Positions 45-803 of a stretch of DNA of 5,319 bases are shown here, one piece after another. The DNA comes from a virus (Duplodnaviria > Heunggongvirae > Uroviricota > Caudoviricetes). The notes under the pieces are model-generated. The model saw only the letters and a program-made list of their open reading frames with translations, was not told the origin of the DNA and searched no databases. The translations under genes and the position numbers were made by a program. The stretch is from the IMG/VR virus record IMGVR_UViG_2548876940_000001, positions 1 through 5,319 of that record. One strand, written 5' to 3'. Position 1 is the first letter of the stretch. Every line of letters begins with the position of its first letter.

Positions 45-140
45 TCAAATAAGTGGTTTGCTGCCTAATTTCATTTTCTGGCGACCAACACAAGTCACAC
101 CCATTTCACTGCGTGGCTTGCTGTAATAAATTCGGTTAGT
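45..140 (-). pseudogene. N: Orphan 3' fragment of an N antiterminator gene (phage 21-like C-terminus, no start codon)
   Basis: Minus-strand translation gives TNRIYYSKPRSEMGVTCVGRQKMKLGSKPLI then TGA at 47..45. This matches the C-terminal RNAP-binding end of lambdoid N as I recall it (phage 21 ...NRIYYSKPRSEMGVTCVGRQKIKLGSKPLI; lambda ...GITCSGRQKIKGKSIPLI). An in-frame TGA lies immediately upstream (143..141) and there is no ARM or N-terminal part. Confidence 0.55.
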
Positions 141-146
141 TCAGCC

Positions 147-169
147 AATAAAAAACCCACCGAAGTGGG
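147..169 (-). terminator. Rho-independent terminator closing the AT-rich ORF
   Basis: On the minus strand: stem CCCAC / GTGGG (plus 165..169 and 156..160) with a UUCG tetraloop, followed by TTTTTTATT (plus 155..147). It starts right after the TAG stop at 172..170. Confidence 0.7.
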
Positions 170-508
170 CTATGACCATTTTTTATTTGGATTTCGTTGG
201 TGAGCGTGATTAACAACTCTGTGCATTACATCCTCATATTTTTCATCTTCAATTTTTTCGACATCGCGAGGAAATGGTGTTGCTAATGCTTTGTCAACTT
301 TGTCCATTGGGTCTTCATTAATCTTATATTCAGGACCGTCATCTATAGCATTAAATCCAGGTGTTACACCGTTTTTTAATGCATATGCTATCCTCTTTTC
401 CCATCTCGCTATTCTCCTCCTGTCTCGAGATGTAAGACCTCTATCAGATACTTTTCTGTTTTGTCCGCGGTCAGGATTAACATAAATAGTCTTTTTCACC
501 ATAAGCAT
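170..508 (-). CDS. Hypothetical protein, AT-rich cargo gene downstream of N (about 110-112 aa, highly charged, no cysteine)
   Basis: Six-frame ORF 170..514 (the track starts it at a TTG). Likely starts are ATG 508..506 (MLMVKK...) or ATG 502..500 (MVKK...), only 2 or 8 nt past the N-frame stop at 513..511. Stop TAG at 172..170 is followed by the terminator. Spot counts give about 35-37% GC against about 50% in O/P. No family recognised. Confidence 0.5.
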   Translation of the reverse strand: MLMVKKTIYVNPDRGQNRKVSDRGLTSRDRRRIARWEKRIAYALKNGVTPGFNAIDDGPEYKINEDPMDKVDKALATPFPRDVEKIEDEKYEDVMHRVVNHAHQRNPNKKWS

Positions 509-510
509 AC

Positions 511-803
511 TCAATAAGCACCGTACGGTAGTTTACTGTACAATTTTATTTTTGGGACTGCATGTATTTTGTTTCCTAATGGGTTTGAATCCTTGTAATA
601 AATACTTCTATTTTTTCGAACAACTTCTTCTTTCTTCTTGCAGCAAAGGCTTCTTAGTGATGCTGCTTTGTCTGCTCTGACGCAACCAGAGAGCTTTAGC
701 GCAATTTTTCGCTACTGCGTCGCTCGGCAATAAGTTCTGCTCTGCGAGCTTTGTAGCGGCTTTTTGCCGTACCTTTGGATTCTTTCCAGACAATGGTTAC
801 CAT
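511..803 (-). pseudogene. N: Antitermination protein N, phage 21-type arginine-rich motif, interrupted by a frameshift and with a divergent C-terminal tail
   Basis: AGGAG (817..813) then ATG 803..801. Frame A reads MVTIVWKESKGTAKSRYKARRAELIAERRSSEKLR then TAA at 698..696; the GTAKSRYKARRAELIAERR segment is the phage 21 N boxB-binding ARM. The rest of N is in another frame (711..514): RKIALKLSGCVRADKAASLRSLCCKKEEVVRKNRSIYYKDSNPLGNKIHAVPKIKLYSKLPYGAY, stop TGA 513..511, preceded by an in-frame TAG at 714..712. No single frame spans the gene. Confidence 0.65.

Follow-up and report, generated by a model that had tools for sequence, protein, structure and literature searches.

How does the antitermination gene N of a lambdoid prophage come to end twice, with another gene lying between its two 3' ends? 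The question is raised by a stretch of 5,319 nucleotides (nt) from a caudoviricete record in IMG/VR (IMGVR_UViG_2548876940_000001; the whole stretch is hereafter called the window), the minus strand of which reads, over 1-1768, as a lambdoid prophage's left early region, where the pL operon starts. Read on that strand, the start of N at 803 is followed by an open reading frame (ORF) of 110-112 codons, here identified as nun, then by a terminator, a 30-codon fragment of N and the start of the next gene. An earlier note on this DNA had explained the order as a cargo module of roughly 470 bp that was inserted into a phage 21-like N by microhomology-mediated or illegitimate recombination at a 10-bp direct repeat, giving N a different tail and orphaning its original 3' end. 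Our analysis favors, with good confidence, a reading in which a pL operon with a phage 21-type N and nut site has a cargo slot downstream of N that holds two stacked units, namely a nun cassette and the gene orf156.

The AT-rich cargo matches nun of phage HK022

The interposed gene lies in an ORF of 114 codons spanning 170-514. Its product is identical at 108 of 109 positions to chain N of PDB 6ALG, the Nun protein of HK022 (E 2.5e-71), and matches phrog_5632 with coverage of 1-112 of 112 (E 4.5e-71); at the nucleotide level the block is 96.4% identical to HK022 across window 153-628. Compared as sequences, residues 22-47 match the 26-residue peptide of the Nun arginine-rich motif (ARM) in PDB 1HJI (E 5.6e-11), and in the alignment the C-terminal RNA-polymerase-arresting tail (ending in HAHQRNPNKKWS) is the same as in the solved chain, while a Pfam search gave no match for either Nun or the orf156 product. 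We identify the AT-rich cargo by this homology as nun of HK022, a known lambda-exclusion gene. Passages of two studies describe how the Nun ARM binds nascent lambda transcripts, upon which RNA polymerase is arrested and lambda is excluded (PMC5386594; PMC4124055). The window and HK022 versions of nun have the same ARM and C-terminal tail, the same position just downstream of pL, the same annotated promoter hexamers and a terminator following the gene. They differ in their surroundings: in the window nun follows a 21-type N with nutL and precedes an orphan N tail, whereas HK022 has putL.

The nun promoter is annotated in the record of O276, an HK022 derivative, and its hexamers, ATGCAG and TACAGT, are unchanged in the window, where they fall within codons of the N tail; a generic sigma-70 scan of the window did not pick them up. 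Downstream of nun, the terminator hairpin and T-run at 154-171 combine a 7-bp stem, a UUCG loop and a U-run (-12.3 kcal/mol), and the HK022 terminator shows a compensatory stem change relative to that of the window. Together with its flank, CCCACTTCGGTGGGTTTTTTATTGNCTGAAC (CCCAC[TC][TC]CGGTGGGTTTTTTATTGNCTGAAC), the nun terminator recurs exactly after unrelated genes in at least seven other contexts in viral contigs, and the recurring copies always end at CTGAAC, the equivalent of window 139. It behaves like a portable terminator module. The loci in which this module recurs are L109, L117, L120, L146, L147, L148, L158 and L161.

In the repressed prophage, Nun would be made from its own promoter, and it would bind lambda-type boxB RNA and arrest RNA polymerase on superinfecting lambda-like phages; both steps have been shown for HK022 and are extended here to the window by homology. 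There is no lambda-type boxB anywhere in the window, the boxB of its own nutL being of the phage 21 type, so Nun, given its specificity, should spare the prophage that encodes it, the 21-type nut sites being presumptive non-targets.

Two kinds of N tail flank nun

The 10-mer TGTAATAAAT occurs exactly twice in the window, and on the minus strand both copies (122-131 and 594-603) read ATT TAT TAC A, the IYY codons in the frame of N, with KDSNPLGNKIHAVPKIKLYSKLPYGAY and a stop following copy 1 and SKPRSEMGVTCVGRQKMKLGSKPLI and a stop following copy 2. In its positions for the repeat, the coding of IYY, the peptides that follow, the ORF and the terminator, the earlier description was accurate. It had, however, treated the first of the two tails as a different sequence into which the reading frame runs. 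This ending is instead native to the N proteins of Salmonella phages. With the tail peptide as query, tblastn detects ES18 gp54 (E 2e-7), the N or gene 24 proteins of BTP1, UPF_BP1, L and ST64T, and the nun-bearing phages; in the alignment, the tail shows 58-72% identity to the C-terminal ends of N in ES18, BTP1, UPF_BP1, L and ST64T, all of which are without nun, around the common motif IYY-x-D-x-NPLGNKIHAVQ-x-x-KL-x-SK. The likeness of the N or gene 24 proteins of ES18, BTP1, L and ST64T covers their C-terminal 35-40 residues; they have another ARM and head, with ral or other genes rather than nun downstream, and they end in SKPLI or SIPAYYD where the tail of the window ends in SKLPYGAY. The phage 21 tail (SKPRSEMGVTCVGRQKIKLGSKPLI), for its part, groups with the lambda-type tail (WYSKPGEFGITCQGRQKVKGESIPLA in locus L089). 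Two natural kinds of N tail exist, and on these alignments both are found in the window, in tandem and separated by nun.

The second tail is the orphan remnant, and its suspected kinship with N stood up to alignment statistics (phrog_271, E 3.2e-12). It comprises the last 30 codons of N, without a start codon or the N-terminal RNA-binding part, and an in-frame stop lies two codons upstream of it. In a near-identical genome PGAP/RefSeq records it as 'regulator, partial, missing N-terminus'.

The joints probably lie outside the repeat

Window 34-137 corresponds to phage 21 positions 601-704 and window 594-1120 to 689-1228, with an overlap of 16 nt, and window 132-593 is absent from phage 21, the N of which is uninterrupted and has the repeat as a single copy with one mismatch. 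The block is AT-rich, as had been proposed, with a guanine-plus-cytosine (GC) content of 37% over 132-655 against 48.6% in the N head (656-803); the composition falls to 33-35% already over 512-655. Window and phage 21 differ by 4 substitutions over 656-1000 and by at least 13 differences over 594-655, and phage 21-like identity stops near 656, some 55 nt before repeat copy 1 is reached. HK022 homology, in turn, reaches 628, with 511-628 common to HK022 and the window, and the segment 511-655 always accompanies nun. The product of a precise excision, built with one repeat copy, was searched against 5,426 complete E. coli genomes. Among uninterrupted N genes, that of strain 22KM0354 came closest, at 91.9% identity to this product, and of its 17 mismatches 14 lie in 606-655 and 2 in the remnant; this clustering indicates that the 604-655 variant is linked to the nun block. 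Hence, the statement that N is 21-like upstream of copy 1 holds up to about 656 and fails for the diverged segment 604-655. We infer that the upstream crossover took place near 656-669, in homologous N sequence, and not at the 10-mer.

At the other end, phage 21 homology starts at 137, so that 6-7 nt of N are kept upstream of copy 2. As the CTGAAC edge of the terminator module lies at 139, the illegitimate joint falls at 137-139, directly after the module, and on this evidence it is the only illegitimate joint of the locus.

The 10-mer itself is best understood as a conserved codon block of two N alleles and not as a crossover site. As a bare repeat it is unremarkable, given that at least two matches with at most one mismatch arose in 10 of 200 shuffles and that four further direct repeats of 12-16 nt occur within the same 1.1 kb; its meaning derives solely from the N homology around it. 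Among some 60-65 loci with the same joint, 23 have the exact 10-mer and 27 have ATTTACTACC, and in PA28-type loci both copies differ from it. The bases before the copies also differ: copy 1 has AGAAGT, and copy 2 has AACCGA, which fits the AACCGT of phage 21; the two IYY blocks therefore appear to come from different N alleles. A target-site duplication by a transposon or insertion sequence was considered and rejected: most loci lack an exact repeat, 132-593 is not enclosed by inverted repeats, and a transposase ORF is absent.

An old joint and a proposed route

The search for the insert elsewhere found the nun block in many phages and prophages. The order N-nun-remnant is present in mEp235, Kapi1, PDP110P1, mEpX1 and PA28-type Stx1 phages, and the same joint in about 217 of the complete E. 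coli genomes. In a set of 81 nun loci from IMG/VR and GTDB, the remnant directly follows the nun terminator with the same joint in 65. Upstream of nun, most loci have the 21-type head; a head with a different ARM is found in L077, L080 and L096, and putL without an N head in HK022, O276, HK75, L066 and L068. Downstream there is either the remnant or an HK75-type flank, and every upstream/downstream combination occurs. We read this distribution as one old joint inherited by many phages, not as a recent event in this genome. The closest relatives, namely mEp235, Kapi1, PDP110P1, mEpX1 and O26/O111/O55-type prophages, have an identical N, nun and remnant architecture at 96-98% nucleotide identity, with the mEp235 genes annotated as N and Nun; the window departs from the mEp235-type relatives by a 13-bp frameshift in N that it shares only with locus L041, while mEpX1, unlike the window, has one more cargo gene and another N-tail fragment. 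A full-text literature search found nothing on N and nun in one phage, on the N remnant or on an N vestige in HK022.

A variant of the arrangement is seen in PA28 (L007, 968-1613) and STEC2018-607 (L016, 1109-1754), where a small deletion removes the N stop. In this PA28/Stx1a lineage, N reads 12 codons into the start region of nun (ending in PPYGLIEYAYGEKDYLC and a stop), and the annotated nun of PA28 is merely a 45-codon C-terminal piece.

Candidates for both parents are at hand. The N head, nutL and pL of phage 21 are 98-99% identical to those of the window, but in that phage nun is absent and N, which is followed by ral, is uninterrupted and has one IYY block. In E. coli 22KM0354, N is intact, has a 21-type tail and stands immediately before the gene for the orf156 protein WP_000167595.1, the same as that after the remnant; its N 3' end and orf156 are near-identical to the remnant and orf156 of the window, but here too nun is absent and N, with one IYY block, is uninterrupted. 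We propose that the first of the two stacked units is the nun cassette, which would comprise the last third of an N allele with the ES18-type tail (containing the nun promoter), nun, and its self-contained terminator. The second would be orf156, which has kept in front of it the final 30 codons of the 21-type N that it once followed. One illegitimate crossover would have fused the nun terminator module at its end (139) with the interior of the N of another phage (137, codon ~70), a left part of nun type through the terminator and a right part of 22KM0354 type from N codon ~70 being enough to account for the whole. Upstream, the cassette would be joined to the 21-type N head by homologous recombination within N, near 656-669, possibly in a later exchange.

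Several points weigh against this account. The upstream joint near 656 is placed by divergence against the available N alleles, and an unsampled 21-type allele with the KKKEEVVRKNRS segment would shift it to the repeat. The position of the nun promoter comes from a single GenBank annotation, that of O276. In SW07096, L079 and HK75, nun is followed by the conserved right-hand boundary of the slot without a remnant, but these remnant-free loci carry a diverged terminator and so may have arisen by secondary deletion instead of representing the parent. In a search of IMG/VR for the exact terminator module of nun ahead of non-N DNA, all 51 nun-linked copies preceded the remnant; no nun locus had a CTGAAC-type terminator before non-N DNA, which makes any order of events provisional. 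Between window 133-153 and the nun flank of HK75 and SW07096, 11 of 21 positions agree (permutation p 0.006), a match too short to show a former remnant.

An alignment of the nun start region to the boundary of ral, with its N stop, Shine-Dalgarno sequence and ATG, looked suggestive by eye and was set aside, as MAFFT places it differently.

The orphan N tail as the probable edge of a cargo slot

Across loci the remnant always reaches the natural N stop and GAGGTGAGATATG, and the genes found behind it are at least six in number, namely ral, orf156 and those starting MSSIRLTT, MEEQANKI, MLKKVKRR and MEFHESAI. Where the remnant ends in KSIPAYYD, the MLKKVKRR gene mostly comes next; a KLGSKPLI end goes with the others. 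In mEpX1 (L006, 780-1175) and L019 (1825-2180), two N-tail fragments follow nun, the first being a 30-codon L-type remnant (ending in KSIPAYYD) before an Sf6 gp36-like gene and the second a mini-remnant (RIYFRSKPLI) before the gene next after it. Thus disposed, the remnant behaves like the left edge of a cargo slot, and the pattern fits cargo genes that move with the piece of N tail they followed. As an occupant of this slot downstream of N, orf156 (phrog_1636) is one of at least six alternatives.

The orphan tail is presumably untranslated, and its main role may be to provide orf156 with a ribosome-binding region and to offer homology at which further exchanges can occur. A stronger version, which is compatible with the origin of the remnant proposed above, holds that the tail is retained because it is useful, both for initiating translation of the next gene and as a linker whose homology allows cargo to be swapped or stacked. 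The constant extent of the remnant through the N stop and GAGGTGAGATATG in front of so many genes, the correspondence between its end type and the gene after it, the nested remnants of mEpX1 and L019, and the existence of putL phages with both nun and the remnant (L066 and L068) speak for it. Yet the remnant, with at most 10% divergence over 90 nt, is open and conserved to a degree expected by descent alone, and nun loci without the remnant belong to viable phages (HK022 and HK75). We therefore advance retention for use only tentatively, as the somewhat less probable view.

Other explanations of the tandem N ends

The model of the earlier note, a foreign block (132-593) inserted into an intact 21-type N by microhomology at the 10-mer, describes the locus correctly in formal terms: compared with phage 21, the block amounts to an insertion with the 10-mer at its ends, it is AT-rich, and one of its junctions is illegitimate. 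But the tail it regards as accidental is a native N C-terminus, the divergence and the GC drop start near 655 and not at 603, the hexamers before the two copies point to different N alleles, and the 10-mer is inexact in most loci with the same joint. We regard this model as unlikely. What survives of it is a cargo block with one illegitimate joint, without the repeat as the crossover site, and its broader claim that a mosaic-building event is recorded here was right, the locus being a genuine recombination scar in which a 21-type tail was displaced and orphaned.

A tandem duplication of the N 3' end in place, followed by insertion of nun between the copies, would explain two N 3' ends in direct orientation 472 bp apart. 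The two tails, however, are only distantly alike, with just IYY and KIKL-x-SK in common and with nearest lineages in ES18/BTP1 and phage 21/lambda, respectively; the remnant is near-identical to the tail of the intact N of 22KM0354, and no intermediate with two near-identical tails exists among the 81 nun loci. This makes duplication in place very improbable. That the contig is chimeric, an artefact of assembly or sequencing, finds support only in the unusual 13-bp deletion and can be practically dismissed, for the same arrangement occurs in independently sequenced phages (mEp235 twice, mEpX1, Kapi1 and PDP110P1) and in the roughly 217 complete genomes, and the deletion itself recurs in an IMG/VR contig.

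N and nun as a possible linked pair

Juhala and colleagues reportedly described, in 2000, phage 'morons' as promoter-gene-terminator units added between conserved genes. The nun unit resembles these in having a promoter (from annotation only), one gene, a terminator and a lower GC content than its flanks, in its absence from close relatives, and in its presumed expression from the prophage. It is unlike a moron in that its promoter lies in borrowed N coding sequence and in that the pairing with N extends even to Proteus phages. An N-like gene (phrog_271, E 3.7e-26) and the Nun-like gene behind it (41% identity; phrog_5632, E 1.2e-12) lie 1 nt apart in a Proteus vulgaris genome and in related IMG/VR contigs. 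The adjacency of N and nun appears to be old, and the two behave more like a linked pair than nun does like a free moron.

Further, in the Proteus-type loci (L085/L086/L097, 1155-1776; L087/L088, 1200-1788), the L087 protein in the N position matches, over its first 33 residues, the Nun-like protein of L085 at 67% identity (E 1e-13), and its last 29 residues resemble the N-like protein of L085 (E 2e-4). The RNA-binding heads seem to have been swapped between N and Nun.

The pairing also bears on HK022 itself. Ahead of nun, HK022 (L002, 1551-1676), O276 (L004, 1157-1276) and HK75 (L012), which are without the N head and the remnant, have a 38-codon N C-terminus, a vestige 94.7% identical to the tail of the window (E 4e-15) and unannotated save for the nun promoter in O276. 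HK022 looks like an N-nun phage that lost its N head. In broader terms, we see an even chance that the N 3' end is a reusable recombination linker for the post-N cargo slot, where stacking leaves nested fragments (one here, two in mEpX1 and L019), that HK022 derives from an N-nun phage, and that N and Nun are an old linked pair whose RNA-binding heads have been exchanged.

Loci L089-L093 offer a separate observation on the nun 3' end. There, a lambda-type N (ARM MDAQTRRRERRAEKQ) is followed by a 293-residue protein (ORF 706-1587 of L089; phrog_12139, E 8e-206), the last 15 residues of which are the Nun C-terminus (VNHAHQRNPNKKWS), and then by an HK75-type terminator. This is either a mosaic joint in the 3' end of nun or a second protein with the polymerase-binding tail of Nun.

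A 13-bp deletion in N and the state of the prophage

The N of the window is broken by a 13-bp deletion at 712|713 (the missing bases are ATGAAGCACTGGC in relatives), which shifts the frame after codon 30 and leads to a stop at 696-698 after 35 codons (MVTIVW...AERRSSEKLR), leaving the rest of N, including the tail frame, out of frame with its ATG. The new tail peptide had been correctly quoted by the earlier note, which overlooked the deletion and with it the fact that the tail is not contiguous with the N start in the window. Relatives have the N reading frame intact. Against phage 21, N over 656-803 shows a single substitution (at 670) besides the 13-bp gap, and N as repaired with the sequence of a relative matches phrog_271 (E 4.6e-31) and reaches 18.4 bits with Pfam PF25694 (N_peptide), below the cut-off of 27.9. 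The deletion occurs in none of the 5,426 complete E. coli genomes and recurs in IMG/VR contig IMGVR_UViG_2675903606_000002 (L041), which is 99.8% identical to window 1-2001. With N frameshifted, the prophage is probably unable to antiterminate while its nun is intact.

As a discovery the locus has little to offer and amounts to ordinary phage mosaicism, since the cargo is a textbook gene, named phages and genomes in the hundreds share the arrangement, and RefSeq has already marked the remnant. Its worth lies in being a worked example of a lambdoid mosaic, with one homologous and one illegitimate joint and with the downstream parent type surviving in databases. Many prophages of the enterohaemorrhagic E. 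coli type carry an intact lambda-exclusion gene; with its broken N, the one described here would probably be induction-defective yet still protective.

Layout of the locus and other observations

The features of the left early region are collected in Table 1. A prophage of O26/O111/O55-type E. coli matches the entire window at 99.3% identity, and an Rfam scan of the whole window returned zero families at the gathering score.

Table 1. Features of the N-nun region, in window coordinates
Feature	Position	Strand	Remarks
LexA-like repressor	1118-1768	-	Then pL and nutL
nutL boxB hairpin TCTCAACCTAACCGTTGAGA, phage 21 type	914-933	-	Phage 21 annotates nutL at the equivalent position
N 5' part, phage 21 type	656-803	-	Start ATG 801-803; premature stop 696-698
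N 3' third, other allele	511-655	-	Mid segment KKKEEVVRKNRS and ES18/gene-24-type tail IYYKDSNPLGNKIHAVPKIKLYSKLPYGAY; stop 511-513
10-bp repeat copy 1	594-603		IYY codons of the allele with the ES18-type tail
nun promoter as annotated in O276	535-563	-	-35 ATGCAG 558-563; -10 TACAGT 535-540
nun, putative transcription-arrest (superinfection exclusion) factor	170-502	-	By homology; alternative upstream ATG 506-508
Intrinsic terminator module CCCACTTCGGTGGGTTTTTTATTGGCTGAAC	139-169	-
Illegitimate junction	137-139		Terminator module to interior of 21-type N, codon ~70
Orphan N 3' end NRIYYSKPRSEMGVTCVGRQKMKLGSKPLI, then stop	45-137	-	96% nucleotide identity to phage 21 N
10-bp repeat copy 2	122-131		IYY codons of the 21-type allele
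orf156 Shine-Dalgarno GAGGTGAG and start	1-44	-	ATG 34-36 (MTKSWSVPFPES..., phrog_1636); continues off the window

Outside this region, the replication gene O (2472-3371, plus strand) is 900 bp long, against 939 bp in the nearest genomes. Its shortening covers most of the remaining difference in length, 5,319 against 5,372 bp, and probably reflects a change in repeat copy number within O.

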